This document shows, piece after piece, positions 4,117 through 43,343 of a DNA stretch of 64,000 bases (position 1 is its first letter; each line of letters begins with the position of its first letter). The notes beneath the pieces are model-generated. The model saw only the letters and a list, made by a program, of their open reading frames with translations, was not told where the DNA came from and did not search any database. The translations under genes were made by a program, and so were the position numbers. Origin of the DNA: Geosiphon pyriformis uo1 (lineage: Eukaryota; Fungi; Glomeromycota); contig JAAOMT010000082.1 in the NCBI GenBank assembly GCA_016748015.1, positions 219,483 through 283,482 on the forward strand, in the 5' to 3' direction.

Positions 4117-4140
4117 GTCTTTATATATTCTTTTGATGAA

Positions 4141-5520: not shown

Positions 5521-5582
5521 CTTTTGTTATATTTTTATTTGAATTCTTTTGGGTTTTGTTATATTTTTGGTTTGAAACATTT

Positions 5583-11749: not shown

Positions 11750-11811
11750 TTTTGGATGATGTTTGTTGGTGCTGGTTCTCTGTAGGATTATATTTCACAG
11801 GAAGCACCAAA

Positions 11812-12666
11812 TGTTACAGATGTTTATTTGGGTCTCAGGTCAAATAACAAACCTGTAACTTGGTACTCAAAAGCTATTTCTGTTGATGATGTTCTGAAAG
11901 TGTTGTATCTGAAGATTTTGATGAAGTTCTTTGTATAATGAACAGAGATTCAATAGTGATAAGTGTTTGCGTGTTCAGTTGTTTCCCAATTTTTTTCTCA
12001 GCTTGGTGGCTGAATTTATTCTGGCAGTCATGCCCTTCTGGTAAGCTAACTGATAATATATATAAGTCTACCCTTATTTCTGGGTCTTTTACCAGGCTAT
12101 CTGTAACATCAATAACTCAGTGCTTTTAATTCTCAATCAATTAGTATGCACAACAAAATCAAAGAAAGAAGGAAAATAAAATAAAAAAAATAAAATAAAG
12201 AAAATAAGCCAAGGCAATGTGGTAAGTTAGTATTCTGTTAATAGCTGTGATCAATAGCTATTGTTCTAGTGTGGTTAATTATCAATTACTATCAACATGA
12301 AGTGTTGATAGTGGAGAGTGGATTGAGATATGGAATAATTATTTATTTGATGATTGGGAACTGGAAGGTTGCTTAGATTAAATCTAAACTGAGAGGTCTG
12401 TCTTTTTAGCTTCTAATCCTACTGCTATATATACATAATTGAGATTCCTCAATTCCTTAATTCCTCAATTCTTTACAACAGGAATCCTGCAATTTTTTTA
12501 AGAAGAATCCTGGAATTCTGAAATTCTGCAATTCCTTGTGAAAATCCTGTAATTCCTGGAATCCTGCAATTCCTGAGAAGAATTCTGGAATTTCACATTT
12601 TACTACGTTTACTTCTGATTGGTTAATAACTATGCTAATATATTTCCTATATTTTTATGAGTAACA
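11812..12666 (-). repeat. B1 5' LTR
   Basis: Followed on the minus strand by the PBS TTTGGTGCTTCCTGTGA. Confidence 0.93.
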
Positions 12667-15173: not shown

Positions 15174-15238
15174 TGTTGTTGATTTTGTTGTTTGTTTGGC
15201 TAGTAGTTGGTTGGTATTTTGTTGGTTTGGTGTTGGTA

Positions 15239-18200
15239 TTATTCTTGTCTTATTTTTGAAAAGCTATCAACATTTGTGTGTAGTTTTCCTGGCTTGTAGT
15301 GCACAATGTATTTGTAGTCTGCTAAAAAATTATTCCATTGAGACTGTTTAGCACTTTGTTCTTTTTTGTTTTTATTGAGCTATTTGAGACCAATATTGTT
15401 AGTTATTATGTTAAATTCTTTTTCATTCTTCAGATATTGTTGAAAATGTTTTAGAGCCCAGATAACTGCAGCAGTTTTTAATTCAGTTGAGCCATATTTT
15501 AGTTCTGTTGGTTTGAGTGTTCTACTAGCATAGACAATGACTTGTTCTTGCCCATTTTTATCTACTTGTAATAAGATGGCACCAAATGCTATGTGTGAAG
15601 CATCAGTGGCTAGTTGAAATTATTTGTTAAAGTTTGGGTATGCAAAAACTGGGGCTGTTGTCAGCTTTGTTTTGAGAGTTTCAAATGCTTTTTGTTGTTT
15701 TTCAGTCCATTTGTATAGTACATTTTTGTTGATGAGATAATTGAGTGGTTTGACAATTTCTGAGAATCCTTTGATGAATTTTCGATAATAGGAAGCTAAT
15801 TCTACAAATTCTTATAGCTCTGTGGTATTTCTGGGTGTTTGAAAGTTTTTAACAGCACTGATTGTTCCAGGATTTGGTTTGACTTCATCTTTGCTAACAA
15901 GTATCCAAGGAAGATTAAGCTTGTTTTTTCAAAGTGATATTTCTCAATGTTTAACTTCAATCCTGCTTTCTGTAATCATTGAAAAACTTCTCGCAGGTGG
16001 ATAAGATAAGCTTCAAAGCTTGGTAAGTATACATCAGTGTTATCAAAATAGACAACTACTGATTGCCATAAGAGTTTTTCATATACAACATCCATGAGTT
16101 GTTGGAATATTGCTGGTGCATTGCAAAGTCTAAAGGGCATAACATTGAATTCATAGTTTCCTTTTTGGGTGGTAAATGCTGTTTTGGGTCAGTCTTTTGA
16201 ATCTATTTCGACTTGCCAGTATCCACTTTCCAAGTCTAAAGTTAAGAAAAACTTGGCTTTTCCTAGAGCATCTGGCATGTTATCAATTCTTGGGAGAGGG
16301 TAAGCATCTTCAATTGTCACACTGTTGAGTTGACAATAGTCTACACAGAATCTGATTTTTTCATTTTTTTTTGACCAGAACCACTGGTAAGGCCCATAGA
16401 CTTCTTAACAGTTAAATTAATTTATTATTGAGCATTCTTTGGACTTCTTCCCTAATGAATTGGTGGCTGGCTGGTAGTACTTAATAAGCTTGTTGACGTT
16501 TTAGTGAAGCATTTTTTGTGTGGATCTAATGTTGAACAATATCAGTTTTTCCTAGATCATTGTTGTCTTTGGCAAATATATCAGCAAATTCAACTATCAA
16601 CTGTTTCAATTGTCTTTGTTGTTAGGGTTCTAAGAGACTCATGTTAATTCAGGTGAGTTTTTCTTTGATTAGGTGGTAGTTTTCAGTTGTTGGCAGTATA
16701 TTTGGACTTGAAAGTAAGGTGTGTTTCACAATTTCAGTGAAATTAGAAACAATTTGAGGGTTTTTATCTTGAAAAATATTACTATGTATAATTCCAATTT
16801 CTAGTTTATTTAATAAGACAATAGGGTAATTGTTGGGGTTGTAGAATGTAACTCGAAATTTTTTTATTCCTTTGGAAATATAAACATTTAGAATTGAGAT
16901 TTCATGATTTAAACAGATTTGTTCATTGGATTTAAAGATTTGTTGGGTAGTGGTGGGTTTTGAGCAAGTGTAAATTTCATGATGTTTTCCAAAAAGTGAA
17001 ATAGTAATTGGTTGGGGAAGTTGAAGAATCTGGTAAGATTCATTCTGTGTATTAAAAGCTATGTTTACTGGCACTGTAAATTGTTCAGTTAAACCAAAAC
17101 CTTGAGTTTCTTTTTAACTTTTTCCCAATTGTTTTCTGTTTTTAACTGATTGTAAACCCAAAATGTTGATTAGAGGTAGATAAATTGTTTGGGCAATCTT
17201 TTCTGTATGCTCAATTTTGAATGGTTTTTCAGTTTCATTCTGTAGCATAATGGTGATGTCTTCAGTGTATTCTGCATTTATAATTTCTCCTTTAACATTG
17301 ATTCCTTTACTAGCTAAAAATGATCAAGAGGCAATTTGGACTATTGCTCCTGATGGAATTTTAAGAGCAATTTTCAGGTTGATTTTTGTAAAAAACTTTG
17401 ATTGAAAGATTAAAGTATTTTTGCCAGAATATCATAAATCATATTCTACATCAATTTTGTGGGCTTTTTCTGATTTGATTCTTTGGCCATGGTTGTCAAA
17501 GTATTTGAGTTGTAGGGGTGGTTGATTTTCGAGTAGATAGATAGGAGTGGTTGGTAGTTCTTCTATTAGTTCAAGTACTCCAAATTCAATTTCATTTTCA
17601 TCATTTTCATTTGGCAAAAGAATGCTAAGAGCATAGCATTCTAAACACTATTGGTCATTATAAGACATGATGCATTCTTCACACAATTGAATGTTTATTT
17701 GCTCTAATCATTAAATTTGAGCTTCTTTGGTCAGATATGTGTGGCTTGCAATTTGGTGATAGGTTTTTGTTTTATCTTCATAATCAAATCCAGCTAATTC
17801 CATGGTGTACTCAATATATTCAGCTTTTTTTATTTGGCAGACATCTTTTTGAGTGGCTCCATTAATTAAAGCTATTGCTAAGTCAAAAATCATTTCAGCA
17901 TCATGTGAGTAATAGTATAGTTTGTTGAGAGCATTATTGTATGCTGCATTAAATGGTGTTCCTCTTTTTACTTTTTCCGAGATTGATAGAGCATATTGGC
18001 AGATTTGGTCACAAACTTCTTCTCTCATTGTAACATCAATCCAGTTGTATTTTTCTGGTAGCATATCTCCACATGTAAGACAAGGGGTATTGTTCTATTT
18101 TCCACTTCTTTTTGGAGATCCAAAATGTTCTTTATGGCATACTTTGTAGAAGTAGCAGGTGCGAGTTTCATATTCCTCTTCTGGAAAAATTCATGCTCCC

Positions 18201-21303: not shown

Positions 21304-22404
21304 TGTTACCCGAGTAAAAAAACCGATCCAAAGTTATGAAGAAACATGACCAAAACGTGACATAACACAGAATAACATGCAATAACGTTGGATAATGTAT
21401 TATAATGTTGAATAACGTGTTATAATGCAGAATAATACAGAATAGTATGCAATAATGTAGGATAACGTGTTATAATGCAAGATAACACAGAATAACATGT
21501 AATAACGTCAGATAACGTGTTATAACATAGGATAACTAGTGATAACATAGAAAAACAAAGCAATAACAGAAACAACAAAGCAATAGCTAGTGATAGTGAG
21601 ACAATTGAAAGCAATCCTGTAAAACCAAAAGAATGTATAAAAACAAGTAGTTGTAGAAGTAAGAAAAGACAAAAAGAAAAAAAAATAGATACGAACCTCT
21701 AGACCAGAAATTAAAATATCCATATCTTTTCATCCTTTATTATCTTTCTTATTTCATCTTCTGAAATAAATCAATTATTAAAAGAAATCAGAATTGTGAA
21801 TTCATGTTCTCAAACTTTGTGAAATTTACATGAATTAACTCTTGTCTTGTACCTCCGTTCTAGAACAGATGCTCTTAGCATAACTGCCTTAAACTTATTA
21901 ACAATTTGGACCAATCGCTTTTGATCATGGCGATTGATGATACTAATTTATCATTTCTCTCTTTTTTTTTCTTTTCTTTTCTTTTTTTTTTTCTTTTTTT
22001 TTCTGTCTTAATTTTTTTGTGGAACGGCAACATAGTAAAATTGACTGTCTAGGAATAGACTTCGTGATAGCCTGGTAAAAGAAAGAAGTTCCCCCTAAGT
22101 TTTGAATATTAACATTATCTTTTTAGCTTACCAGAAGGGCAAAAAGACAATGTCAGACCCTAACAACTGCACTCGTTAGCTTGAAAAAGAAAGCTCACAT
22201 TTACGAAAAACATTGTAATCGACGAAAGACAAACTCTGTGCCTTATAACCAAAGAACTCAATAGGTAAAATTCACATCCAGAAATAGACTTTCAGAGACT
22301 GATAATCAAGACTAAGCCGACAGAATTACGCAGAAAACGCATCATCAATAATTGAGAGCACCAAATGTTACCATTTCCCATATCCACCAAGTTTACTCAT
22401 AACA
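21304..22404 (+). repeat. C1 5' LTR
   Basis: TGTTACCCGAG…CATAACA; direct repeat of 30460-31534. Confidence 0.93.
21360..21550 (+). repeat. Family C U3 tandem array of ~9-10 bp ATAACR/ATAATR units (also ~30510-30695)
   Basis: About 20 units such as ATAACACAGA, ATAACGTTGG, ATAACGTGTT, upstream of TATAAAA at 21636. Confidence 0.85.
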
Positions 22405-22466: not shown

Positions 22467-25400
22467 GTGGTGACTATTGAAACAATAGGAAAAGACCACT
22501 CCTCGTATGGAAAAGCACTATTTCAATACTTTCGAAAAGACTTAGGAATACCAGCAGGAACCGCTTACACAGAAAGTGATTTTTGTAACTATATCAACAC
22601 AAAAATCGACTGCTTGTTAGGCTGCGCAACTGATACAGGAAGACTTGGAGAACAAATCCATCAAAGCTTACTAGGGTACTCAACAGCCATGACTACCCGA
22701 GCAATTGTTGAAACTCTGCGCATAATTGATACAGACATTAAATATTACATGGCACAACGATTCCCTCAAGTACAACAACCAGTGGAATCCGACCCTAAGG
22801 AATATGAAAACAAATCTAACAAACCTGTAACTGCCCAAGCCAAATCCACGGTCAACAAAAAACCAAGGGTTCTCTCCCTAACAACTTCATCATACCATCA
22901 GACACCTCAAAGTAGAATTGTATTCAACCCACCCCCGGAAACCCAGTTGGAAACACCACGAACTCCTGGAAATCCACACTCTTGGAATCAACACAGTTGG
23001 ACCAAATTACTAGAAGAATACGGATTGCTGTTTGGAAATCTTAACCCAGCAGCTGGTCAAACAGAAGGAAACCCATCAACTTGGGAACAGCCACCAGCAC
23101 AAAATTTAGCAGAATCAGCATCTCCTCTGATGAAAGAAACAGCTATCTTACAACCTATTGGTTTAAGTGACAAAGGAAAGCAACCAGCATTAGCACCCGG
23201 AAAACACTTGAATACGCAGACACCAATCCCTTTAAACATAACCAGTAACACCCCACCCATTAACTGGATCATGGCTTACCAGGATATCACTAAATTGGAA
23301 AAATTCTTTGGTGAAGAAGATAACGCATATTCTTGGATCGTGGATGCCGAGAAAGCAATTACCACTAACAGTTGGAATGATAACCGCACAGTTCAGGCAC
23401 TACCATTCTTTCTGATCAGAACTGCCAATTCGTGGTACCAGAGCCTGGCAGAAAAGCCTACCTCCTTTACCGAGTTTAAACTTGCATTTCTGCAATACTT
23501 CTGTGACCCCAATACATTAATCTGATTGCAGAATCAATTCAGCATAATTAAACAAAAAGATCATGAAGCAGTAACTACTTATTTTGGATGATTTAATCAA
23601 ATTCTGCATCAAATATTAGGTATCAAAAGGGACTACACCATGGCACAAGTTCTTAATCAATTCATTAAAGGATTGCAGAGTAGTATTCTAAGATCCGTAA
23701 GACCCTACCATCTGACCAGTTTACAAGACGCCATCACTCTCGCTCATGATTTTGAGTCTGCAGAACAAGAAGCGAACCATACCCAAGCCGTTAATTTAGC
23801 CATTAACAGAACCTCTGACATCGATGCAAAGATAACCCAATTGAGTAAGAAACTAACTCAGAAAATTGAGAGATTTTTAGCTGAAACTACAAGAACTTAC
23901 CAACCACTCCAACAGAGAGAAAATAACAACAACAGCAGATACCCACAGTAACAGAACCATCAGCAACAGCAACAATCTTGAAGATCCGATCTCCACAACT
24001 GCTACTACTGCCAAAAACCTGAACACATCGTCCGTGACTGCAGAAGGAAGATCATGGACCAAAATCAAGGAAACCCATACCAGCAACCCAGATATCAGCA
24101 AAACATGGTACCCCAATATTCCATACCTTAGAATCAACCGCCCCTATATGCACAACAGGTCTTGTACATTCAATCACCATCCCAGAATTATTATCAACCA
24201 CCACCAATAACACAAGCAATCCCTCACTATCAAACTTCCCCTTACAGCCCATCCAGACCTCGAGCTATAGACTATAATCAGAGATGGAGGAATCCCAACA
24301 ACAATCAAGTGCAAACCAACAGTAGACTGTCTCGACCAATCCTTCGCGGTCCTGTCCAATCTCGACCAACACCAACTGGATACCCAAATCAAGCTTCCTA
24401 TCTCAGTTTTATGGAAGACCAGGATTTGATAAATCTACACCTGTGGAAGGGAAGGATATAGAATGAATTTTCCAACCTTCCAAGCAAACAAAAAGCAATA
24501 TCCCACCAGCCACTATTACTGAAGACACCACCCTAGCTGCCATATTTTCTTTTAACATCGATAATTTGAACACACATAGCCTTTTTAGTGGAGCAGCCAT
24601 CAATCAGGATAAACCAATAACAGCCCTATACACCAATGCCAGAGTTGGAAGAATAGACATTAAATTAATCCTGGATAGCAGATCAGCTGGTAGCATAATC
24701 ACGAAGCAGCTCATGGACCAACTAGGTTGCCAAGTAGACCGTGCTGCTACTGCCTGGATTATTACAGCGGATGGGAACACAAAAACCCCGATAGGAGAAA
24801 TTGACAACTTCCCCTTCAAGATTAATAGAATCCAAATTCCTACCAAAGTACTCGTCATAAAAGCTACTCAATATCAAGCTCTAGTAGAAAACGACTGGTT
24901 GTCAAAAGCCAATACTACTCTCGACTGGAACACCCAAGAACTTCAACTCACATTCAACAGACAGTATGTCCGAGTCCCAGCTATATGCGAACACTTTAAA
25001 AACCAACATACTGAGGAACCCCTTATTGAATTCGAAGACACATCAATGCCACCAACCATTGAGACCTATCAGGTTTCATGGGTGGTTGATTATTGAACTG
25101 AATTACCCCTACCACCAACCTGGGAAGAAAAAGGAAAAGGCAGAGCTAAAAAAGAATCCCAATCGTCATCACTAGGATACGTAATCTCAAACCAAAGAAA
25201 CTTATTTTACCAACTCCCAAGACTAATATGTGTCAATTATGGAAAAAAACTATTCACTATGGGTGCATGTATCGGGGACAACAAAGAATGGCCCATCATC
25301 ACCAAATACTATTGCAGGCCTTGTTTACTGGAAAGATTTGGATGACCAAAATGACAAGGCAAGTGGGACCACATGCCATGTTTTGCATGTGGCGAAATCC

Positions 25401-28252
25401 TGTCAGATGAAGGACTCTGGAATGATGTGCCTGGCAGAGGAGGAACATGCGATAAGGCTTGTCAATAAACCATATTAATCAACAATTGGGTATGAAAGGG
25501 AACCTCTATCGAAGATGCTTGGAAACGAGCACTCAACAGGCTAGATGGTTATCCACACAATGACCACAAAATCTGGAGAATGGCAAGCACCAAGGCCGAA
25601 GGTGCTATGCACGAAGAAATACGAGAAATTAAGGACAACCCTTGGATGCCTGAATATACTGGACCTGACTACCCCAAGAATAATTTCTTCACAGATGACC
25701 CAAACACATTTCAGAACCAATATCAGAAATTGGCCCCAACTCGCAAGGAACAGGAGCAAAGATTGGCTGATTTGAATACCAAACTATGCAATTACTGTTT
25801 GATTCTCTGTCATTTCCAGTACTGTGATGGATGTGATCTCATGTTCAATCCGCCTCCAAGAATACTGTTTCCAATCACCGAACTACCTGAACTTGAAGAA
25901 GAAGTATTGATTACCGAGGACATGTCATTTCAAGATCCAACTGAGGATACCAAAACAAAACAGTATTTCGTGTATCCCAATCTATCCAAAGAACTAGAGC
26001 TAAAATGGTACAGTGACAACGAGGAAGGAATCTGCCCCGAAAGAGTGCATGACACCAATGCCAGTTTTGACTTATGATACCCCGGACAATCACCCATCAT
26101 TATAGCCCCACATTCCTTCGTAAAAATAGATCTTAAGATAGTGTTAGAAATTCCTGTTAGTACAATGGTACAAGTTGCCTCTTGATTTAGTCTAGCCAAG
26201 AAAAAAATCAACATAAAAGGAAGAATCATTAATGCCGGTTACATGGGAAACATCATCATGATGCTACAGAACAATTCGGACAGACTCTACAAAATAGAAT
26301 TACAAGAAAAGATTGCCCAAGCTATCTTTCTACCTTTAGTCAAAATACTCCAATTAACCCCGGTAACAACTTGAGAAGAGTTAGGCCTCATTGCCTGAGG
26401 AATCAACGGGTTTGGATCAAGTGGAAGAGGAAACATACCAGTTAATTTCACAGAGGAAGACAGTAACCAGGTAGAATTTATCCTCACCAACACCGTCATC
26501 TCTATTCTCTCATACTAACAATACATCTTCAAGATGAATTGAAAAATCCAAGATCAAGCCCTATTATTCAAAGCCAGTCTCAAAATCTGTTCCCTAGCCA
26601 ATGTTGTTAATCTATACCTACTGGCCAAAGCCCATAAACACTTCAAAATCCTCATTCACAACCCGACAGAAGATGTCATTGAAATCCCCAAAGGGACCCT
26701 TGTCGGTTCCATATCCGCAGATAGTCAGAATCCTGAAAAACCCCAGTCCATTCCAGATTTTGCACAATTATTCTTATTCTGTGACATTACCTTACAAGTA
26801 TGGAATTTGCCAAAAGAAAGTTACTTGTTTGCACCAGAAGAGATCAATAAATTGAATTTAGGAAATTTAAGTACCTTGCAACAAATGCAACTCAAAGTCC
26901 TTCTGAATCAGTATGCCAATGTCTTTGTCAGTGAAAATGAGTTCGGATGCACCGACATCGTGAAGCATCAGATTGATACAGGAGACACTCGACCAATTAA
27001 GCAATGAGCTTACCGCATACCTCCATCTGGTGATAACCTAATTAAGCAAGAAGTACAACAGATGCTTGATAACGGCCTAATCAAAGAATTGTTAAGCCCT
27101 TGGTCCTCACCAGTAGTCTTGGTTACTAAGAAAAACGGAAAAGTGCAATTCTGCATAAATTATTGAAAACTAAATAGCGTCATGCGAAGAGATAGTTATC
27201 TCACTCCCCTTATCCAGGAAATTCTGGACAATCTAGAAAAAAAAAAATGGTTCTTGTCATTAGATTTAGCAAGTGGTTACTGGCAAGTTGAAATAGACCC
27301 CAAAGACAAAGGAAAAACAGCGTTTACCACTCAAGACAGAAACTTTGAGTTTAACGTAATGCCTTTTGGACTTTGTAATGCTCCTGCCATGTTTCAACGT
27401 CTAATGGATGTAGTATATAAAGGAATCCTTTGGAAATCAGTAGTAGTCTACCTAGATGACACAAACATGTTCTCCGAAATATTCGAAGACCATCTGCTTC
27501 ACCTGCAACAAGTCTTCAAACGCCTTCATAGTGCCAGATTGAAACTCAATTCCGAGAAGTGCTTCTTTGGAAAAACTGAGTTAAAATTCCTAGGACATGT
27601 AATTGGCAAGGATGGAGTTAAACCCGATTCAGATAAAGTACAAAAAGTCAAGGATTTTTCAGCCCCAATCAACCTCAGAGAATTACAAGGATTTCTAGGA
27701 TTAGCAGGATATTATCGTCGATTTGTCAAAGATTTCTCAAACATCACAAAACCACTCTATCAATTGTTGTTCAAATACGTACCGTACTTGTGGAAGGAAG
27801 ATCAACAGAAAGCATTCGACTATCTCAAGCAGCAATTGATCACATTCCCAATCCTGATTTACCCAGATTTCACTAAATAGTTCATTGTTGCTATGAACAC
27901 CTCGAAAAATGCTCTAGGAGCAGTCTTATCACAGATAGGACTGGACAATAGAGAACACCCAGTTGCCTACGCTAGTCACAGCACTAGCCCAGCAGAAAAG
28001 AATTACAGCACAACAGATCTAGAATGTCTCACCATTTATTGGGCCATACAGATTTGGAAACATTACCTCAGTCAACCATTTGATCTATATACCAACCACA
28101 AAGGACTTATTTGGTTACTCAACAATCCACAACTAGAAGAAAAATATGTGAGATGGAGTACTTATCTGCAACAATTCCCACTCAAAGTTCATTACAAAGA
28201 AGGATCCAAGAACACCAATGCCAACAGTTTGTTGAGGATGCCACAAACCTAA
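22467..28252 (+). pseudogene. gag-pol: C1 gag-pol, degenerate
   Basis: Gag 22467-24450 with CYYCQKPEHIVRDC knuckle, LILDSRS protease, Cys-rich ~25225-25835, dUTPase ~26000-26430, RT YLDD 27182-27880 and RNase H to MPQT* at 28252. Confidence 0.92.
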
Positions 28253-28262
28253 TCCCAGACCC

Positions 28263-29630
28263 ATGGACACACTCACTTATCAATGACTACATTAGTATCT
28301 ATCGACACTACATTTCAAGAAGATATTATCTCAACAGGAACAGAGTACTATACAAAAACAAGCCTGAAATTATTTTATTCAAGACAACCAACTATATTGA
28401 CGAGAATGCCAAAACCATTCCAACCCACAACAACTAATCATGGACAGTGAAAGAGAAACTATACTATATAGTGTGCACTCAGATCTGACTGCAGGACACT
28501 TTAACAAAGACATTACCCTCGAAAGAACACTAAACTTATACTATTGACTAATAATGCACAAAGACATTTTCAAATACATGCTCAATTGTGACGCATGCCA
28601 GCGAAGAGAAAGAGCAAGATCAACAGAACCACTTCAATCCATTCTAGTTGGAAATCTATTTGATAGAATTGGAATCGATTTGGTTGGATCTTTTTCAATT
28701 ACATCCCAAGGAAATTGCTATATTGCTGTAGCCATAAACTATCTTACAAAATGGCTAGAAGCCAGAGCAATCCAAGTGGCTAATGCCAAAACAGTCGCCA
28801 AATTTGTGCATCAAGACCTAATTTGCCAACATGAATGTCTGAAAGAATTATTATCTGATCAGGGAACACACTTCGTTAATAATACACTAACTGAACTAAG
28901 CCAACAGTTTGGAATAAAAAGACCCTTATTGTCACTATACCACCCACAAACAAACAGGCTGGTAGAACAGTTTAACAAAACACTGTGTGAAGCACTAGTA
29001 AAAATAAGTCATGAAAACAGACAAGAATGGGACTTATTCATATTTTCTGTACTTTTTGCATACCAAACATTGAAACAAAATACAACTCAGTTCACACCAT
29101 TCGAACTAATCTATGGAAGAAAATCTACATTACCGATTGAATGAGTAATACCATTATACCCAACAGAAACAATCAATGAAGAGAATTTTGAGACTACCTT
29201 ACACCAAAGAACATACCAGTTAATGGAAATGTTGGAAAACAATCAAAGAACAGCAGCTGACAATATTAGTCATGCTCAAGAACGACAAAAAGAAAGACAT
29301 GATAAACACCTGCCAGAACAACCAATGGAATTCAAGATTGAAGACCAAGTACTGTTACATCATACAAAAGCTAAGAAACAGTGAAGTGAAAAGTTTGACC
29401 CAAAGTGGGATGGTCCATTCCACATACATGAAGCGTTAGGAAATGGAACTTACAAATTACGATTGGAAGACAGGATTTTAAAGAAAGTAGCACATAGAAA
29501 TCGGTTAAAAATTTATCATGTAAAACAGAAATCATCATCATCAGTACCTCAACTAGGAACACAAATTTCATTAATCAGACCAGAAGATATACCACGAGAT
29601 CTGGAACCAATCATTGTTATCGAAACGTAG
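28263..29630 (+). pseudogene. int: C1 integrase (stand-alone ORF)
   Basis: ATG 10 nt after the RNase H stop; VHSD…GHF…CDAC, GIDLVG/SDQG/LVEQFN, GPF; ends EPIIVIET*. Confidence 0.9.
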
Positions 29631-30459: not shown

Positions 30460-31534
30460 TGTTACCTGAGTAGAAAAACCAATCCAAAGTTATGAAGAAA
30501 CGTGACCAAAATATAACATAACACAGAATAATGCACAATAACATTGGATAATACGTTATAATGTTGGATAACGTGTTATAATGCAGGATAATACAGAAAA
30601 GTATGCAATAACATAGGATAACGTGTTATAACGCAGAATAACATGTAATAATGTCAGATAACGTGTTATAATATAGGATAACTAGCAATAATATAGAAAA
30701 ACGAAGCAATAACAGAAACAACAAAGCAATAGCTAGTGATAGCGAGACAATTGAAAGCAATCCTGTAAAACCAAAAGAATGTATAAAAGCAAGTAGTTGT
30801 AAAAGTGAGAAAAGACAGAGAGAAGAAAAAATAGATACGAACCTCTAGACCAGAAATTAAAATATCTATACCTCTTCATCCTTTATTATCTTTTCTATTT
30901 CATCTTCTGAAATAAATCAATTATTAAAATGTGAATTCATGTTCTCGAACTTCGTAAAATTTACATGAATTAACCCTTGTCTCATACGTCCATTCTAGAA
31001 CAGATGCTCTTAGCATAACCACCTCGAACCTATTAACAATTTGGATCAATTGCTCTTAATCATGGTGATTGACGATACTAATTTATTATTTCTCTCTTTT
31101 CTTTTTTTTTCTTTTTCTTTTTCTTTCTTTTTCTGTCTTAATTTTTTTGTGGAGTAACAACATAGTAAAATCGACTGTCTGGGAATAGACTTCATGATAG
31201 CCTGGTAAAAGAAGAAAGCTCTCCCTAAGTTTTGAATATTAATATTATCTTGTTAGCTTACCAGAAGGGCGAAAAGACAATGCCAGACCCTAACGACTCT
31301 GCTCGTTAGCTCAGAAAAAAAAGCTTACATTTACAAAAAACATTGCAATTGATGAAAGACAAACTCTGTGCTTTATAACCAAAAAACTCAATGGGTAAAA
31401 TTCACATCCAGGAATAGACCTTCAGAGACTGATAATCAAGACTAAGCCAACAGAATTATGCAGAAGATGCATCATCAATAATTGAAAGCACCAAACATTA
31501 CCATTTCCCATACCCACCAAGTTTATCCGTAACA
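30460..31534 (+). repeat. C1 3' LTR
   Basis: Preceded by PPT AAAAAGAAAGGGATAA. Confidence 0.93.
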
Positions 31535-33576: not shown

Positions 33577-34548
33577 TATTACCAGAGATTTTTGGTCTCT
33601 TTTCTTAAATGTTGTTGATGTCTGTTCATTGTAAATTCACGTTTTCTGGATGTGGTTGAATCTCCAATAACTGAATTTATCTTCAAATTATCTCTTATAA
33701 TTTGAACTGCTGGGCTTATAAGTAGAATAACCAATTCCTTGCCAGTTACTTTATGTAGTTACATTGTAGTAAACATCAACTCTTTCCTAGGAATTGCTCA
33801 TTTGGAAGCTCACTAAAAATGTGTAGTTACTTTGCTGTGAAAGTCAACTCTTCTACAGGAATCTTGTCTGTAGGCTACCCTAATAATTGTAATAAGAAAA
33901 GAAAAAAAAAATAAAAAAAATGTAAAAAAAATAGGATTTTATCAAGGGAAACGTTTTTCTATTCAGGCCTAGAGTCACTAACAGTTTACTGAAATTGGTA
34001 GCTAATCAATTTCGAAATGTTAGTTGGATTTTGGGGATTTTCCAAGTACAATAATTAAAGAATTTGGTTTTTTGAATTATTTGATATTTATTTCTTTTTG
34101 TGTGTATAAGAACGGTTTTAAGAGATAAATCTAAAGTAAGATACATTTTTTTGAAGAAAAAAGCTCTTTTTTTATACAACTTGTTGTAGTACTAGTCTAT
34201 GAACTTGCACTTTTTCTCTTTGCTCAAATTTTGGCAAACTAAAGATACATTTTGGTAAACTACAAGTTATTTCGCTGAACTATTGATTAATTTGGGTGAA
34301 CTATTCATAATTTCGGCGAATTTCTGTAAATTTCGGCGAATTTTTGAATATTACAAAGTTCAGAGTATTGTGTAATTTGATCATCCTACTTTCTGTTATA
34401 CTAATTAGATTATTTTAATTGAATCATGATATGTGATAATTGATTAAATAATAAATGATAATTTGAAATGATATTAATATATTAATTAATTATAGGAATT
34501 ATAAAGGTAATTTCATGCTAATTAATAGCTAAAATTCTACTGGTAACA
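33577..34548 (-). repeat. A2 3' LTR
   Basis: Direct repeat of 52578-53506; PPT adjacent at 34549-34562. Confidence 0.92.
34228..34345. repeat. Family A U3 array of TTCGNCGAA-like palindromes, ~20 bp period
   Basis: TTTGGCAAA, TTTGGTAAA, TTCGCTGAA, TTGGGTGAA and TTCGGCGAA x2; similar arrays in the other A LTRs. Confidence 0.75.
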
Positions 34549-35236
34549 TAATCTCCTCCTCAAGACTGAGCTCCATCGAAGTCCAAGCACTATCTGTAAT
34601 ATTAAGATAGTGATCCAAAATAATTGAAGTAATCTGGTCTAAAAATTGTTGAAATTTCAGTTCTGTGAGTTTGCCAATGTATTGGACTTTCATTGGTTGC
34701 AGTATTGGATTTTGTAGAACATTTTCACAAGTATTAAACAAATCATAGAGTCTAAAAGCTGCTCTAAGTTTGTAGCAAGTGTTTGTCAGTCCAGCTGCTG
34801 TTTTGAATTCATTGTAGATTTGTTTTTGTATAGCTTCAGGAGTGAGATTTGTTGCTTCAAGTTCTAGTTTTCGTTCATAAAGTGTCTTTCCAATGTAAAA
34901 GTATTTATAGATAGAAGTGTGTTCATTGTTCTGTTCATTGAGAAGTAGTAGAAGTTTTTGTTGCATTGTAGCATTTGATAGAATTTCAATAGGGGCAATT
35001 AAAAGATTTTTTTCTAGTGCTTGCTTCAAAAGTCTTGGTAACCTATTTTCAGAGTGACTTCTTGTTTTTCTTCTATAGGGGTGATAGTTCTGTAGATGAT
35101 TTGCTACTGGAGCTGTGGTTTTTTTCTGAATGTAATTAATTTGACTTCCATTAATCGTTATGGATAAGTCAGAAAGTGTTTTTAAGGCTAAAATTAACTT
35201 TTGGAATATTTGTTGAATATTTCGGGGAATAATCAT
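34529..35236 (-). CDS. A2 accessory ORF3, intact 235 aa, unknown function; runs through the PPT into the 3' LTR
   Basis: Uninterrupted ORF with motifs LSITIN…INY, YFYIG, RAAFRLYDLF and IGKLTELKF shared with ORF3 of B and C. Confidence 0.8.
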   Translation of the reverse strand: MIIPRNIQQIFQKLILALKTLSDLSITINGSQINYIQKKTTAPVANHLQNYHPYRRKTRSHSENRLPRLLKQALEKNLLIAPIEILSNATMQQKLLLLLNEQNNEHTSIYKYFYIGKTLYERKLELEATNLTPEAIQKQIYNEFKTAAGLTNTCYKLRAAFRLYDLFNTCENVLQNPILQPMKVQYIGKLTELKFQQFLDQITSIILDHYLNITDSAWTSMELSLEEEIMLPVEF

Positions 35237-35382
35237 AATAAAATTGACTAATTATGAAAAGAGAGAATAAGAAAAATTATTTTTGGGATATGGGGTTTTT
35301 TATTTGTTTTTGGGTTTGGGTGTTTTTGTAATTTATTTACTATTTTTGTCTTTGTGTTTTTATTGGAGAATTATTGTAAAAT

Positions 35383-36744
35383 TTAAGTGTTTAAGTTTGG
35401 TTGTTGTTCTATTATAATTATTGGTTCTAAATTTTGGAGAATATCTTTAGGATTAATTAAAGGGGAATGTGTACCAATTTGTGAAATTAATGGTTCAGGA
35501 TTGTTTCTGGAATGATAGTGTTTCAATCTGTTTTCATGTGCAACTTTTGCTAGTATTTTGTTATCAAGTCTTAATTTGTATGATCCATTGCCTAGAATTT
35601 CGTAAATATAGAATAGTCCATCCTATTTGTTTTCAAATTTTCTACTCCATTGTTTTTCAGCCTTAGTTCTGTGTAAGAGAACTTTTATCTCCAATTTTTA
35701 ATTTGTGAGTTATGGGTGGTAATTTGTTGTCATGTCTTTCTTTTTGTTGAGCTTGGGAATGTTCAATATGAGTTGCTGCTATCCTTCTTTTTCCTTTCAG
35801 TGTACTAAGAAGAGTGTAGGTTCTTCTTTGGAGTGTTTCTTGAAAGTTTTTTTCATTGATTGGTTGCACTGGATATGTTTCCACTGTGAAATTAATTGGT
35901 AATATTGCTGTCCTTCTATAAGTAAGATCAAATAGTATGTGTTTCATAGTATCTTGTTTTAGTGTTCTGTATGCTAGTAACACTGATGGAATAAAGATAT
36001 TCTATTCCTGCTCAAAGTCTGTTAAGACTTTGGCTAGAGATTCACACAATGTTCTGTTAAAACGTTCTACAAATCCATTTGTTTAAGAGTGATAAAGTGA
36101 TGATAGAGGTCTTTTGACATTGAATTGTTCACAAAATGTGTTCCTTGATCAGATAAAAGTTCAATTGGGCATTCATGTCTACAGATAATGTCTTCATAGA
36201 TGAAATTTGCTACTGATTTTGCATCTGCTCTTTGGATGGCTCTAGCTTTAGGCCATTTGATAAGATAATCCACTGCAACTGCAATATAATAATTTCCTTG
36301 GGTTGTGATAAGTAATGGTCTGACTAAATCAATTCCAACTCTGTCAAACGGTTGTCCAACTTTGATTGGATTTAAAAGTTCTGTGGGGTGAGTTTCTCTT
36401 CTTTTTTGACAACTCTCACAAGATTCTACATATTGTTGAATGTCTTTTTACATGTGAGGCCAAAAATAATGTTCAAGGGTTCTTTGAATTGTTCCATCTC
36501 TTTCCAAGTGTGCTGAAGATGGATTTGTGTACATGTTGTATAAAATTGTTTCTTTTTCATTTTTTTGTACTAATCTGAGTGGTTGATTTGGGTTTCTGTG
36601 ATTTTTATAATAGATTTTGTTCTGGTGTATAAAATATTGCTTTAATTGGTATTGTAAACGATGTTTTTCACTTGGAGACCAGTTTTCTGGCATGGTAAGA
36701 GTCTCCAAATAATTTTTAAGATTGCTGTAATTTCTGGAATCCAT
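35383..36744 (-). pseudogene. int: A2 integrase (stand-alone ORF)
   Basis: ATG MDSRNY… 57 nt after the RNase H stop; DYLIKWP, SDQGTHF; small internal deletion or frameshift. Confidence 0.88.
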
Positions 36745-36801
36745 TCTTGTTTGGTTATTTTGTTAGTAGGTTAGTAAGTTGTAGTGGAATTGTTGTTGGT
36801 A

Positions 36802-39800
36802 TTAATCTTGTCTCATTCTTGAGAGGCTATTAACATTGGTATGTAGTTTTCTTGGTTTGTGGTATACAATATATCTGTAGTCTGCTAGGAAGTCATTCCA
36901 TTGAAACTGTTTGGCACTTTGTTCAGTTTTCTTTTTATTGAGCCATTTGAGGCCAATGTTGTCTGTTATTATGTCAAATTCTTTTCCATTCTTCAAATAT
37001 TGTTAAAAATGTTTAAGAGCCCAAATAACTGCAGCAGCTTCTAATTCAGTTGAGCTATATTTTAGTTCTGTTGGTTTGAGTGTTCTACTAGCATAAGTGA
37101 TGACTTGTTTTTGCCCATTTTCATCTACTTGTGATAAGATGGCACCAAATGCTATGTGTAAAGCATCAGTGGCTAGTTGAAATTATTTGTTGAAGTCTGG
37201 GTAAGCAAGAACTGGGGCTGTTGTCAGCTTTGTTTTGAGCGTTTCAAATGCTTTTTGTTGTTTTTCAGTCTATTTGTATGGCACATTTTTATTGGTAAGA
37301 TAATTGAGTGGTTTGGCAATTTCTGAGAATTCTTTGATGAATTTTTGATAATAGAAGGCTAATCCTACAAATTCTTGTAGCTCTGTGGTATTTTTGGGGG
37401 TTTAGAAGTTTTTGACAACACTGATTGTTCCAGGGTTTGGTTTGACTCCATCTTTGCTAACAATGTGTCCAAGAAAGATTAAGCTTGTTTTTCTAAAGTG
37501 ACATTTCTCAATATTCAACTTCAATCCTGCTTTCCGTAATCATTGAAAAACTTCTTGCAGGTGAATAAGATGGGCTTCAAAGCTTGGTGAGTACACATTA
37601 GTATCATCAAGGTAAACAACTACTGATTGCTATAAGAGTCCTTCATATACAACATCTATGAGTCGTTGGAATGTTGCTGGTGCATTACAGAGTTCAAAAG
37701 GCATAACATTAAACTCATAGTTTCCTCCTTGGGTGGTAAATGCTGTTTTGGGTCGGTCTTTTGGGTCCATTTTGACTTGCCAGTATCCACTTTCCAAGTC
37801 TAGAGTTGAGAAGAACTTGGTCTTTCCTAGAGCATCTAGCATGTCATCAATTCTTGGAAGAGGGTAGGCATCTCCAATTGTAATACTATTTAGTTGTCTA
37901 TAATCAACACAGAATCTGATTTTTCCATTTTTCTTTTAACTAAAACTACTGGTGAGACCTAAGAACTTTTTGATGGTTGAATCAATCTGTTATTGAGCAT
38001 TCTTTGGACCTCTTCTCTGATGAATTGGATGCTGGCAGGTGGCACTTCATAAACTTGTTGATGTTTTGATAGGGCATCTCCTGTATGGATCTGATGTTGA
38101 ACAATGTCTGTTTTTCCCAAGTCATTGTTGTCTTTTGCAAATATATCTGCAAATTCAGCTATCAATTGTTTCAATTGTCTTTGTTGTTAAGGTTCTAAGG
38201 GACTCATGTTGATTCGAGAGAGTTTTTCTTTCACAAAGTGGTAGTTTTTAGTAGTGGGAATGATATTTGGATTTGGGAGTAAAGTGTGCCTTACAATTTC
38301 GATGAAATTAAAGACAATTTGAGGGTTTTCATCTTGAAAAATATTGCTGTGTATGATTCCAATCTCTAGTTTGTTTAATAAAACAATAGAGTAATTATTG
38401 GGGTTGTAGAATGTAACTCGAAATTTTTTCATTCTTTTGGGAATATAAATGTTTGGAATTGAGATTTTATGCTTCAAACAGATTTGTTCATTGGATTCAA
38501 AGATTTGTTGTGTGGTGGTGGGTTTTGAGCAAGTATAAATTTCGTGATGTTCTCTAAAAGGTGAAATGATAATTGGCTGGAGAAGTTGAAAAATCTGGTG
38601 AGATTCATTTTGTGTATTAAGAGCTATGTTTACTGGGACTCTAAATCGTCCAGTTGAACCAAAACTTTGAGTTCCTCTTTCACTTTTTCTCAATTGTTCT
38701 CTGTTGTTTACTGATTGTAATCCCGAAATGTTGATTAAGGGTAAATAAATTGCTTGAGCAATTTTTTCAGCATGTTCAATTTTGAATGGTTTGTCTGTCT
38801 CATTCTGTAACATGATGGTAATGTCTCCAGTATATCCTGCATTTATAACTCCTCCTCTAATATTGATTCCTTTGTTTGCCAATGATGATCTGGAGGCAAT
38901 TTGAATCATTGCTCCTGGTGGAATTTCAAGAGCAATTTTGAGATTGATTTTTGTTAAGGACTTTGGTTGGAGAACCAAAGTATTTTTTCCTGGGTATCTT
39001 AAGTCATATCTAGCATCAATTTCGTGTGCTTTTTCTGGTCTGATTTCTTGGCCATGGTTGTCAAAATATTTAAGTTGTAGAGGTGATTGCTTTTCAAGAA
39101 GATAGATGGAGGTGGTTGGTAGTTTTTCTACTAATTTAGATACTCCAAATTCGATTTCATTTTCTCATTCTCATCTGGCAGAGGAATGCTAAGAGCATAA
39201 CATTCTAAACACTATTGGTAATCACAAGGCATAGCACATTCTTCACACAATTGAATGTTTATTTGCTCTAATTATTGAATTTGAGCTTCTTTGGTCGAAT
39301 ATGTGTGGCTTGCAATTTGGTGGTAGGTTTCTACTTCATTTTCATAATCAAATTTAGCTAATTCTATAGTATACTCAATATATTCAGCTTCTTTCATTTG
39401 GTGGACTTCTTCTTGGGTGGCTCCATTAATCAATGCTATTGCTAGGTCAAAAATCATTTCAGCATCATGAGAGTAGTGGTAAAGTTTATTGAAAGCACTG
39501 TTGTATGCTGCATCAAATGATGTTTCTCTTCTGACTTTTTCCGAAATTGATAGAGCATATTGACAGGTTTAATTACATACTTCTCCTCTCATTGCTACAT
39601 CAATCCAATTGCATTCTTTTAGTAGCATTTCTCCACATGTAAGGCAAGGAGTTTTGTCCCATTTTCTACTTCTTTTTGGGGATCCAAATTGTTCTCTATG
39701 GCATGCTTTGCAGAAGTAACAAGTGCAAGTTTTGTATTTTTTTTCTGGGGAAATACAGGCTTCTATAGATGAAAGCTTCTTTTTGCAATCTTTGCATTTT

Positions 39801-42409
39801 AGTAGAATGTATGGTGGTTCTTTTCGTGGTTCTGGTGTGGAATATCTAACTTTCTTCCATCCCCTTGATTCTTCAAAAATCTCTTGTTCTGTTTCCTCAG
39901 CCCAATTGGATGGTGATCTAAGAGCCATATAGGTTTCAGTGAGTGGCATTTTCTTCTCTTCTTCAAATTCAAATACTGGAGCTTTTTCTGATTGTTTGTT
40001 AAAGGTACCACAGGTTGCAGGTACTATGATATATTGTTCTTGGTATAAGATTTTAAGTTCTTGAGTTTCTCAGTTCAGGTTTGCATTGGCCTTGAAAAGC
40101 CAATTATTTCCAACTAGAGCTTGATATTGGAGTGTATTCATAACAAGAACTTTAACTGAAATGGTGATTCCATTAATTGTAAAGGGGAAATCATCAATTT
40201 TTTTTACTGAAATCTTCTTTATACCATCAGCTGTGACAATAACTGTTTGAGCTGGTCTGTTTATATTTCATATGAGTTGTTGCATCAGCTGATAAGTGAT
40301 GATACTTCCAGCCAATCTACTATCTAAGATTAAGCAAATGGGTTTTCTTTCTACTGTAGCTTCTGTATACATAGCAGTAATTGTTTTTTGTTCATTGACT
40401 GCTGCATTACTAAGCAGAAATAGTGATTCATTTGTTTCAAATTCAAATGAAAATATATCTGACAGATTGGCATTTTGTGCAATTTGAGCTGGTGGAATGG
40501 TGTGGTTGGAAGGGTTTGATCTTGGTGCTGTAACTTCACCTTTAGAAAGTGCAATTTGTTGAAAATCCGATTCCTCTGGTATTGTAAAATAACTGGATTG
40601 AGTGTGATAGTAATTAGGTCTATGCTGACCAAAATTTCGGGAAACCAACTGGTTATTTGAATTGATTCTGTTGTTGTTACTCTGCAATTGATTTTGGGGT
40701 GTAAATTGGTTATGTTGAACCAATTTTCTTGCTGGTACTTGATATTGTTGAGTGGGTGGTGTCTGATATGGCTGAATTGGTAAAGGTTGCTGATATTGTT
40801 GCTGCATTGGTTGTGGAGCTGGTAAATAGTAACTGTTTTGATTTTGTGGTCTTGGTGAATAATAGGTTGGTGGTGGAGATTGGTAATAAGATTGTTGTGG
40901 TGAAAAGTAACATTGATTACTCCTGTTTTGCTAGTCTCTTTGTAATTTCCTACAATCTCGTTTCCAGTGTCCTGGAATTCCACAATAATGACAATTTTGA
41001 GATTGGTTGTTGGATGGTAATCCAAAATTGTTTTGGTTGTGTCATTGTGGGAGTTGATATCTTTGTGGTTGTTGTTGGTTTGTGAAATAGCTTTCAACCT
41101 TTTTTGTGAGTTGGTCTATCTTCTCTTCAGCTGTTGAGCTGGTTTCTCCAATTGCAAGATTTACAAGCTTGGTGTGATTTGTTTCTTCCAATGCTATTTC
41201 ATAGCTCTTTGTATGTCTAATAGTAGTTGCTAAGTCTGCTAGAGCATGTGGATGGACTTTCTTAATCAGTTTGTCTTTTAACCCTGCTATAAACTGATCC
41301 AGAATTTGAGCATCAGAATAGTAGTTATTGGTTTCCAATTGTCGAATCCATCTGAGAAGTTTGTTAAATCTTCCAAGATAGGTCATAACAGTTTCAGATG
41401 TTTCTTGTTTGATATTGTGAAAGCAGTTTCTGAGAGTGATAGAGGTATTGTTGTCAGTAAATTGTTGTAGAAAAGCATCTTTGAATGCTTGCCAGTTTTC
41501 AAATGATTTTTCTAAATTTTCAAACCATTCTCCTGCCATTCCTTGGAGAAAGTAGGGAATTGCTTTGAGCATTCTTACTGCGATCCAACCATTTGCATCT
41601 CCTGCTTTTTGAACTTTGTTAAGCCATTCTTAAGGACTGGTATCATTGTCTTCACTAGTGAATTCTGGGATTTTTGCAATGTAAGCAGTTGCCATTTCTT
41701 CTTTATTTTCTGTAATTTCTTCTGGTTTTGATTCAGTTTCTTTACTTTCCAAGCTTTCTGAATGATTACTTTTGTTTTCCTGTAAGTAATTAATGATATT
41801 GGCACTTGTTGATATTGGTTCCTGCTGTTGAATAGGGTTTCTAGGTGACTGAAAATCTTCTGGTCTGGAGAAGCAGTTGAGTGGTGAATTTGGTGTTTGT
41901 GGTTGAATAAGTAAAATTGGAAATAGTGTAATAGAAAGTGGTAATTTGACACTAATTTCTTGTTCAGGTGTTCACAAGTGTTTGGCAATTGTCTTTTGTA
42001 GTATTGGAGTGTTTGGAGTGGTTTTTGAGTATTGCTTCAATCTTTGTTTGTCTTTGTTGCTTGTTTCTGTCTTTGATTCAAAGTCAAAAGAGTATTTAGA
42101 CTGTACTGAGTATTTTTCTTCACAATATGCAATAATGTTAAAATTAAGTTCTTGGAAGTAGGTAGCAAGTGTTTTACTGTTTAGGTCTTCTGTCCCCAAT
42201 TGTAAATAGTGCACTAAATTATTGTATAGATTGCTTTTAACTTCTGAAATGTTGTAGTTTCCAAAAAGATAATTGTTGATGCAGTTTTTAATGTATTGGT
42301 ATACTGATTTCTTGACAACTTCAATTCCATCTGGAATGTTGAATCTTTGCTTGCAGTGGGTGTAAATTGACTGGTAATACTCTAGAGTTGCTGTGTCTGG
42401 TGTGGTCGC
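36802..42409 (-). pseudogene. gag-pol: A2 gag-pol, degenerate; GTG start at 52529-52531, beyond the B3 insertion
   Basis: Gag 41042-41572, LILDSR protease, Cys-rich ~39200-39800, dUTPase ~38640-39075 (SRSSLA, GVINAGYTG, KIAQAI, RGTQSFGSTG), RT and RNase H to MRQD*. Confidence 0.9.
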
Positions 42410-42479
42410 TGTTATTCATAGAAATATAAGAAATATATTAGCATAATTATTAGCCAATCAGAAGTAAGTGTAGTAAATG

Positions 42480-42636
42480 TGGAATTCCAGGATTCCTCTT
42501 AGGAATTGCAGGATTCCAGGAATTTCAGGATTCCTAATGAGGAATTGCAGAATTCCAGAATTCCTCTCAAAGGAATTGCAGGATTCCAGGAATTTCAGGA
42601 TTTCTGTTGTGAAGAGTCGAGGAATTGCGGAATCCC
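42480..42636 (+). repeat. Family B U3 tandem array of GGAATTCC/GGATTCC/GGAATTGC units (all six B LTRs)
   Basis: About 14 near-palindromic 8-10 bp units directly upstream of TATATATA (42644-42651). Confidence 0.85.
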
Positions 42637-42643
42637 AATTATG

Positions 42644-42651
42644 TATATATA
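42644..42651 (+). promoter_or_regulatory. Putative LTR TATA box
   Basis: ATGTATATATAGCAGTAG in B aligns with ATGTATAAAAACAAGTAG in C (21633) and TGTATAAAA in A, each right after the U3 array. Confidence 0.55.
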
Positions 42652-43343
42652 GCAGTAGTATTAGAAACAGAAAAGACAAAATCGATACCACAGAATCCTT
42701 AGCCAAGAAACCAATCATCAAATAAATAATTATTCTATTTCTCAATCCACTCTTTACTATCAACCCTTTATGTTGATAGTAATTGATACTTAACTATGCT
42801 AAAACAATAGCTCTTGATCATAGCTATTGATGAAATACTAATGTACCGAATTGCCTTGGCTTATTTCTTTATTTTCTTTAATTTTATTTTCTTTCTTTCT
42901 TTGATTTTGTTGTTATATACTAATTGAGTAAAAAGATTAAGCACTGAGTTATTGATGTCAAGGATAGCCTGGTAAAAGACTCAGAAATAAGGGTAGAATT
43001 ATATATATATTAACAGATAGCTTACCAGAAAGGCATGACTGCCAGAGTAAATCCAGCCACCAAGCTGAGAAAGAAATTGGGCATAATTGCGACTCCAAAA
43101 AAACTACTATTATCAACACTAAATCTCTGTCCATTATACAAAAAACTCCACAAAAAAATCTTCAGATCAACCAAAACCTTCAGATACCATACCTTTCACA
43201 CATCATTCATGAAAATAGCTTTTGAGTACCAAGTTACAGGTTTGTTATTCAATTTAACAACAGAAATAATCACTTGTAACATTTGGTGCTCTCTGTGAGG
43301 TATAATCCTACAGAAAACCAGCACTAACAACACCAAACCAAAA

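Follow-up and report, generated by a model that had tools for sequence, protein, structure and literature searches.

A Gypsy-type lineage of LTR elements in Geosiphon pyriformis with integrase encoded outside Pol

In long terminal repeat (LTR) elements, location inside Pol is the standard route by which integrase (IN) is both expressed and loaded into particles. In canonical Ty3/Gypsy elements (Metaviridae), pol unites protease (PR), reverse transcriptase (RT), RNase H (RH) and IN (PMC5408684; this and the other sources cited here by PMC or bioRxiv number were available in part). The present study concerns a 64,000-nucleotide (nt) stretch of the Geosiphon pyriformis uo1 genome (Glomeromycota; GenBank assembly GCA_016748015.1, contig JAAOMT010000082.1, positions 219,483 to 283,482 of the forward strand), hereafter the window, in which six LTR elements of three families (A, B and C) are nested within one another. 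By anatomy and domain order these elements are Gypsy-type: they have direct LTRs (TG...CA), a primer-binding site (PBS), a polypurine tract and a short target duplication, they encode a Ty3-type capsid, CCHC, PR, RT, RH and IN in that order, and the IN has the H2C2 finger, rve core and GPY/F motif as in Ty3/Gypsy. They are not canonical Ty3/Gypsy members: IN lies outside the Pol frame in all six window copies and in all 50 related loci in which the junction can be read.

Several described groups share part of this layout. In Gmr1-like elements, which we take to be those with IN before RT, RNase H is likewise the last domain of its open reading frame (ORF), and about 40 such proteins occur among the best 120 long hits; however, they encode IN ahead of RT within the polyprotein, they make up a group of their own in both the IN and the RT tree, and the window elements are not so ordered. 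With regard to chromoviruses, no Chromo domain is present in the precomputed Pfam domains of the best 120 stand-alone INs. dUTPase-bearing Gypsy elements are known in fungi and bdelloid rotifers and have dUTPase between PR and RT, as do the elements here, but a separate IN is not described in the available parts of those sources (PMC2864245, PMC5408684). As four scanned relatives lack dUTPase, this domain is a feature of the window's branch. In foamy virus, genomic RNA bridges Gag and a separately made Pol (PMC3185757), so that there, as here, an enzyme produced apart from Gag needs another loading route; there, however, the entire Pol is separated by splicing, whereas here IN alone is separate and splice signals are not conserved.

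In each of the six window elements, the upstream frame stops 3-4 codons past an RNase H-terminal motif of the D.LS[RKQ] type, and the stop is followed by an A/C-rich spacer and a start codon. In C1 (plus strand), TAA at 28250-52 is followed by a 10-nt spacer (28253-28262) and by ATG at 28263, which opens an IN ORF of its own (28263-29630) carrying a frameshift near the start and internal stops from decay. In the other plus-strand copy (plus-strand B), TAA at 49517-19 and a 63-nt spacer (stop plus spacer, 49517-49582) precede ATA at 49583, and IN ends at 50965. On the minus strand, B1 has TAG at 5585-83, a 62-nt spacer (stop plus spacer, 5521-5585) and ATG at 5520, leading into an IN ORF with H2C2 and rve (4141-5520) that has a single frameshift near 4580. 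A1 has TAA at 15241-39, a CAA-rich 65-nt spacer (15174-15241 with the stop) and ATA at 15173, with IN ending at 13789, and A2 has TAA at 36804-02, a 57-nt spacer (36745-36804 with the stop) and ATG at 36744, with IN ending at 35383. Bx (the minus-strand B) has TAA at 54043-41, a 61-nt spacer (53980-54043 with the stop) and ATG at 53979; its IN is split by the inserted A2 (33577-53506), continues beyond it and ends at 32673. Window INs thus end about 455-465 codons past their starts. A first-pass annotation of this DNA had reported the RNase H stop at the same place in all six elements and a separately started IN, beginning at ATG or, in two copies (A1 and plus-strand B), at ATA; the junctions and all six spacer lengths were re-read and agree with it. 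The spacer lengths modulo 3 are 1, 2, 2, 0, 0 and 1 (C1, B1, A1, A2, plus-strand B, Bx), representing all three frames, and the in-frame spacers (57 and 63 nt) contain additional in-frame stops. The spacers are 77-91% A+C, and the three that were folded show little or no structure.

Since the window copies are decayed, the test of decay had to rest on relatives. From metagenome loci (half the collection scanned, 569 loci, best 80 kept), 50 contain both the RH end and the IN start, seven of these being near-duplicates. An open RH-IN junction was sought in these less-damaged copies and found in 0 of 50, and IN has its own in-frame ATG in 49. The RH stops comprise TAA (32), TAG (10) and TGA (8), the frame of IN relative to RH is 0, 1 or 2 in 11, 19 and 19 of 49 loci, and stop-to-start gaps span -20 to +827 nt. 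Twelve overlaps (-1 twice, -4 twice, -8 six times, -14 and -20) and one +2 gap make 13 of the 49 loci coupled and the other 36 not; a further locus, L002, overlaps by -1. The upstream frames stay open for up to 1621 codons and terminate where RH does, in some loci past a longer tail. The occurrence of three frames and negative gaps excludes readthrough and a fixed frameshift, as the first-pass annotation had argued from the window spacers. On this comparison of sequences, the loss of the RH-IN fusion in the window is to be read as architecture, not decay. It is close to certain that the architecture is lineage-wide, with a Gag-Pol frame that stops at the RNase H end and IN as a separate gene with its own start codon.

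Protein searches are in line with this arrangement. With the B1 IN as query and a restriction to 172-548 aa, 1246 proteins were returned, and among the best 120, which were examined, 91 begin with a Met 68-72 residues ahead of the first zinc-finger His; 5 of the other 29 have a Met at that place and 24 are called from a different start or cut short. Named homologues among these 120 are from Rhizophagus clarus and R. irregularis (Glomeromycotina), and the relatives are likely from mycorrhizal fungi; a search of IMG/VR gave no close relative. When length was ignored, 16 proteins without RH ranked above the first fused Pol (408 bits; best match 633). Among the best 120 long hits, the three closest (48-55% identity) are fungal gene models, and the identity of genuine fused ORFs to the intact IN query does not exceed 45%, or 40% where most of the query is covered. 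Two gene models, P0121 and P0122, join RT to IN but lack both the conserved RH end and the IN N-terminus, P0122 having a truncated RH and a truncated IN, as expected of gene-prediction artefacts.

All trees were quick LG+G4 trees with SH-aLRT support only. Split INs form one group in two of them (support 94 and 87); from the first of these, 30 of the 40 proteins with IN before RT and 22 of 23 long hits without an RH match were left out. Split RTs cluster together (support 80) among unnamed fused Pols, in a tree without named Gypsy reference clades whose rows for A1, A2 and plus-strand B contain frameshifted parts. The six window elements cluster together in the IN and RT trees, and along the IN tree junctions switch between coupled and spaced at least 6 times among 56 rows. 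One metagenome ORF of 1023 aa, P0124, carries RT-RH-IN and then the domain of a third ORF (ORF3; assigned at probability 98.6%) in a single frame. It groups with the elements having -4/-8 overlaps in the IN trees (support 98), and the RT tree puts it at the base of the split group, where branching is not resolved, suggesting either a re-fusion or a retained ancestor.

The start context of IN is strongly conserved: A occupies -3 in 62 of 75 loci, G occupies +4 in 65 of 75, and residue 2 of IN is D, E or N in 76 of 76. Met-Asp, Met-Glu and Met-Asn are the pattern of NatB-acetylated N-termini. Spacers contain 4 ATGs, compared with 21.0 in dinucleotide shuffles, and 0 of 200 shuffles were as low. 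The last 90 nt before the start hold 5 ATGs in 1890 nt (21 spacer loci) and 6 in 2190 nt (26 stem-loop loci; see below), and in the same loci roughly 1-4 ATGs per 100 nt are found beyond 150 nt upstream. By every sequence test, the IN ATG behaves as a real start. In coupled loci (9 non-redundant), there are 18 upstream ATGs in 540 nt (3.3 per 100 nt), undiminished up to the start, and it is therefore unlikely that the start is reached by scanning a leader. After the stop, U-rich and A/T-rich tracts occur, with TTTT found 63 times against 21 expected. Spacers of a Rhizophagus-like clade (L003-L013, L020) repeat the words GGAY/CGAY and, 3-12 nt 5' of the IN ATG, contain a word resembling TGATTTAAC with no AG after it.

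In one clade, the spacer includes a motif of about 38 nt that ends 0-30 nt 5' of the IN ATG and forms a stem-loop with two stacked helices, a purine-rich 11-nt bulge and an 8-nt loop whose ends are conserved. Across 25 sequences, pairing holds in 96.4% of cells, with changes on both sides in 8 of 10 pairs, whereas no slid control exceeds 65.9%; relatedness raises such scores, and the same 25 sequences served to derive the structure. A model made from them detects the stem-loop in 27 of 80 loci; within the 254,712 bases searched, every detection lies 5' of IN and on the sense strand. Single-sequence folding energies are unremarkable (z -1.5 to +1.1), and support for the stem-loop therefore rests on covariation. 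Rfam gave no match to it at E<=1 (13 loci, 8 of them carrying the stem-loop), the exact pattern is absent from the viral and prokaryote collections searched, and the model found nothing significant in the window (best E 0.71). A likeness to hammerhead, twister, the iron-responsive element or the K-turn was not supported. The stem-loop may be a restart helper, a gate, a processing site or a packaging signal. Members of this clade (L018, L022, L026, L041, L060, L064) also have an acidic, Cys/His-containing tail of 216-315 aa after RNase H, which is not seen in other clades.

The closed junctions, with none of the 50 relatives fused, support the earlier proposal that IN needs another translation route than Pol. 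The explanation we favour, in which confidence and doubt are evenly balanced, is that IN is translated by termination-reinitiation on the same RNA as Gag-Pol. Ribosomes would finish Gag-Pol at the RNase H stop and restart at the IN ATG of that RNA. At junctions with overlapping or nearly adjoining stop and start, the 40S subunit left after termination would restart in place; where a spacer of 20-120 nt intervenes, it would cross an ATG-free stretch, which in the window is unstructured and CAA-rich; and in one clade the conserved stem-loop abutting the ATG would help or gate the restart. As restarting is usually inefficient, IN would stay well below Gag-Pol. By analogy with foamy-virus Pol, IN made in cis might enter particles by binding genomic RNA or RT and not as a part of Pol. 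Because the two classes of junction, coupled and spaced, are intermixed on the IN tree, one tolerant mechanism, restart with a short slide or scan, fits both.

Coupled termination-reinitiation is described for the spacings UAAUG, AUGA and AUGnxUGA with x = 2, 5, 8 or 14 (PMC5972666), and the overlaps or gap of the 13 coupled loci match the spacings listed (PMC5972666, PMC10275272). The window element C1, with its 10-nt spacer, also has stop and start close together, and in L059 IN is in turn coupled to ORF3 by a -8 overlap. Known termination-reinitiation systems (the termination upstream ribosome-binding sites, or TURBS, of calicivirus and influenza B, and CHV1, HvV190S, SART1 and LINE-1 ORF2) thus have stop/start spacings matched in one quarter of the loci. 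Precedents in retroelements are SART1 and LINE-1, whose 63-nt spacer resembles the spacers of about 60 nt here (PMC5972666); for CHV1, in a fungus, a reinitiation efficiency of 2.5-4.4% is given (PMC2699510). Unlike in these systems, gap length here varies widely inside one lineage, and a literature search found no case of termination-reinitiation in an LTR retrotransposon.

Several observations weigh against termination-reinitiation. Reinitiation after a frame of more than 1000 codons normally requires a tether or transactivator (PMC10275272, PMC5972666), and no TURBS-like tether or transactivator was identified, complementarity to 18S not having been tested. Eight gaps exceed 120 nt, and four of these (162-365 nt, three with upstream ATGs) are not accounted for by a broken RH tail; the B1 spacer contains one ATG. 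GTA is likewise low in spacers (4 versus 11.6), and part of the ATG deficit may therefore be compositional. In the spacer class, ATG depletion reaches about 60 nt into RH (0.87 versus 3.65 per 100 nt in the next 60 nt), a comparison confounded by shared ancestry. A stem-loop directly 5' of the ATG would impede simple scanning, ATG-free spacers with a good start context are equally compatible with a separate capped IN mRNA, and in P0124 RH and IN are in one frame.

The separate mRNA is the main rival, explaining the spacer class equally well, though as an account of the whole lineage we hold it to be somewhat unlikely. IN would come from its own unspliced subgenomic RNA, arising either from an internal promoter, located at the RH 3' end or within the spacer, or from the long RNA once this is processed (through cleavage or a block to a 5'-3' nuclease at the stem-loop). 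An ATG-free zone of about 90-150 nt with a strong start context would suit such an RNA, as would the U-rich and A/T-rich tracts after the stop and the position of the stem-loop behind an unstructured A/U tract and shortly before the ATG. Coupled loci, however, have ATGs 7-60 nt upstream of the start, a separate mRNA does not require a start sitting on the stop, no promoter word common to the clades was seen, and the stem-loop is without an Rfam match. Internal ribosome entry, in which the spacer (CAA/A-rich in the window, stem-loop in the other clade) would recruit ribosomes independently of upstream translation, is distinctly unlikely. The A+C-rich window spacers with little or no structure, and a stem-loop whose sequence and pairing are conserved right at the ATG, would be in keeping with it, but spacers of at most 10 nt and overlaps are too short for a dedicated element, and no element is common to all clades.

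Splicing could either yield a spliced IN mRNA or remove stop and spacer as an intron, restoring an RH-IN fusion. The first-pass annotation had pointed to splice-like words in C1 and A2; the words are present in the sequence but are not conserved in relatives. In the Rhizophagus-like clade, TTAAC/TGATT words are enriched just 5' of the ATG, the gene models P0121 and P0122 connect RT to IN, and ORF3s of LTR elements and foamy-virus Pol are made from spliced RNAs (PMC5408684, PMC3185757). However, AG stands immediately 5' of the ATG in 1 of 75 loci, 13 of 28 spacers are without any YAG, and the first AG past the ATG is scattered from 4 to 98 nt. No donor-like word occurs in the last 120 nt of RH (28 of 28), the stretch covered by the test, which leaves outside it an acceptor further upstream in RH. 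The two gene models lack the conserved RH end and IN N-terminus, as prediction artefacts would, and a Met that is removed would not stay conserved along with its start context; splicing thus seems very unlikely. An ordinary Pol whose stop reflects decay, readthrough or programmed frameshifting is hardly credible: although the window copies are heavily deaminated, readthrough-like and frameshift-like signals exist elsewhere in the lineage and P0124 is fused, relatives with long open frames still stop at the RH end, and they do so with three different stop codons, in all three frames and with negative gaps.

Apart from the mode of IN translation, gag and pol are joined in different ways within the lineage. 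In five of five members of one sub-clade, an in-frame TGA followed by CTA lies at the same position just 5' of RT (L023:2882, L043:2498, L049:870, L073:86, L078:902). TGA-CTA is a known readthrough context, and in these five elements RT would therefore be reached by readthrough and IN by its own start. Where the frame changes between gag and pol in L006, L014, L020 and L042, a TTTAAA(C) word of the slippery-site type suggests a -1 frameshift, and in L018, L022, L046 and the window element B1 gag-pol is in one frame. Antisense ORFs of 150-230 aa lie 3' of IN on the minus strand in four loci (L046:5493-6191, L064:2780-3361, L067:2520-3062, L070:2272-2724).

A third ORF lies 3' of IN in all six window elements: C1 (29711-30445, plus strand, decayed), B1 (3457-4116, minus), A1 (13632-12925, minus), A2 (35236-34529, minus), plus-strand B (50990-51649, plus) and Bx (32643-31986, minus). 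In many relatives, the corresponding position holds an ORF3 family of about 140 aa, with 121 matches including Rhizophagus and Cetraspora names, which is predicted to be all-helical (predicted local distance difference test score, pLDDT, 94). With respect to a possible envelope glycoprotein, as in errantivirus-like Gypsy elements, the family combines this small size and all-helical prediction with no match in Pfam and no Foldseek match at E<=0.001 in PDB or BFVD, which is not proof of a new fold; its best VIA Z is 5.1, and Atlas matches are under the recognition threshold. By hidden Markov model (HMM), window ORF3s match the family weakly at the expected place in 3 of 6 elements (i-E 0.03-0.06; C1, 0.056), the A2 ORF3 gives a weak match (probability 6.5%, E 0.006), and the B1 ORF3 gives no real match to the relatives' family. 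Window ORF3s align with the family at the same aromatic-Gly and Arg-Tyr-Phe motifs. As P0124 carries ORF3 fused to the IN C-terminus, the separate ORF3s probably represent a C-terminal partner module detached from IN. Of the three B copies, two have a single stop (TAA/TGA) and 24 nt between IN and an ORF3 that shares its frame (4141-4116; 50963-50990), and the third has ORF3 out of frame; in family B, the ORF3 split could therefore conceivably be a decayed IN-ORF3 fusion. The description of these elements as tricistronic accordingly holds for the six window elements and many relatives, but ORF3 itself varies, and RT-RH-IN-ORF3 is fused in P0124. Other third ORFs encode a NUDIX protein, a helix-turn-helix protein and an unrelated 117-aa product (L054:1945-2886; L020:6546-6941; L036:1671-2021).

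Ginger1 DNA transposons are defined by a YPYY motif in a Gypsy-like IN, by TGTNR ends and by 4-bp duplications of CCGG, CCGT or ACGG; their relation to Gypsy was left open (Bao et al., 2010; PMC2836005). Like Ginger1, the elements here have a free-standing Gypsy-type IN of about 400 aa that starts just before a Y-P-Y/F-Y motif (Y12, P19, F/Y37, Y45), TGTNR ends and 4-bp duplications. The window target duplications are TTGG/TTAG, CCAT/CCGG, TCGC/TCAT, TCGC/TTGT, ATGG/ATGG and CCAC/CTGC, degenerate in 5 of 6 pairs. A deaminated central CG fits 4 of 5 distinct target sites, the B1 site lacking support, and empty copies of the C1 site (CTAT, CTGT, CCAT, TTGT) indicate CCGT; from this pattern of deamination we infer a CG centre of the target duplications. 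Two IN+Ulp1 proteins share a side of a branch of support 100 with the split INs, 8 fused and 22 context-free INs, and lie outside the split group itself. These likenesses support a kinship of split INs and Ginger1, as far as sequence comparison can tell. On the other hand, the window elements have direct LTRs, Gag, RT and RH, whereas Ginger1 has terminal inverted repeats and no RT, and no Ulp1 or OTU domain was seen in these elements. A bolder proposal, which we consider speculative and rather improbable, is that the lineage is a living Gypsy-to-Ginger1 intermediate: a polycistronic LTR element with an autonomous, Ginger1-like, CG-targeting IN made by reinitiation, gated by the stem-loop in one clade and served by a detached ORF3 of unmatched fold that would target or package IN. 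In the window, two B elements are inserted at the identical nucleotide of two A copies in opposite orientations, about 50 nt behind the A 5' LTR (20849-20856/61227-61230; 42402-42409/52525-52528), and therefore B would have a strong target-site preference.

The nest itself is organized as follows. A1 (1883-62238, minus) is outermost and holds B1 (2580-12666, minus; LTRs about 2580-3444 and 11812-12666) in its 3' LTR and Bx (20857-61226, minus) behind its 5' LTR. Bx in turn has C1 (21304-31534, plus; LTRs 21304-22404 and 30460-31534, TGTTA...TAACA) in its 3' LTR and A2 (minus) within its IN, and A2 contains plus-strand B (42410-52524, plus). Element ends are TGTTA...TAACA or decayed versions, followed by a PBS-like TTTGGT word, and a purine tract lies 5' of the 3' LTR; C1 has both the TTTGGT word after its 5' LTR and the purine tract before its 3' LTR. 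LTR pairs are 89.2-94.5% identical and differ nearly always by transitions; the window copies are old and heavily deaminated. From 5' to 3', the elements encode gag with CCHC, protease, a Cys-rich insert, dUTPase, RT, RNase H, IN and the third ORF, the dUTPase matching Pfam at E 4e-19 to 2e-22 in three window copies. In B1, gag-PR-dUTPase-RT-RH is one reading frame. The decayed gag-pol region of C1 (22455-28252, plus) comprises CCHC (24000-24041), protease (24665), a dUTPase-like segment, RT with YLDD (27449) and RNase H. The Cys-rich insert between protease and dUTPase occurs in all three families (about 8400-8900, minus; 25000-25700, plus; 39500-39900, minus), and the C1 LTR carries a 10-nt short-period repeat tract (21361-21660 and 30507-30816). 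ORFs at or beyond the nest edges (492-1031, plus; 1445-1942, minus; 62803-63255, minus) have no Pfam match.

In the literature searched, a split-IN Gypsy lineage is nowhere described; the layout may already be on record in sources beyond that search, namely Repbase, subscription papers and supplements. It is not mentioned in the available portions of PMC5911963, PMC6839031, PMC5408684, PMC2864245 and bioRxiv 2021.03.30.436303. The split-IN elements are a real, lineage-wide and new form of Gypsy-type element. Gene callers will label such INs as host or Ginger genes, or create introns joining them to Pol. The junctions form a natural series of stop/start spacings on which reinitiation after very long ORFs could be studied, and the lineage supplies a structured RNA and a small protein family, both of them new. 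A widespread fungal lineage without IN in Pol must translate the enzyme and package it by other routes, and its existence bears on how a Gypsy integrase could turn into a free DNA transposase, a question left open by Bao et al. (2010; PMC2836005).

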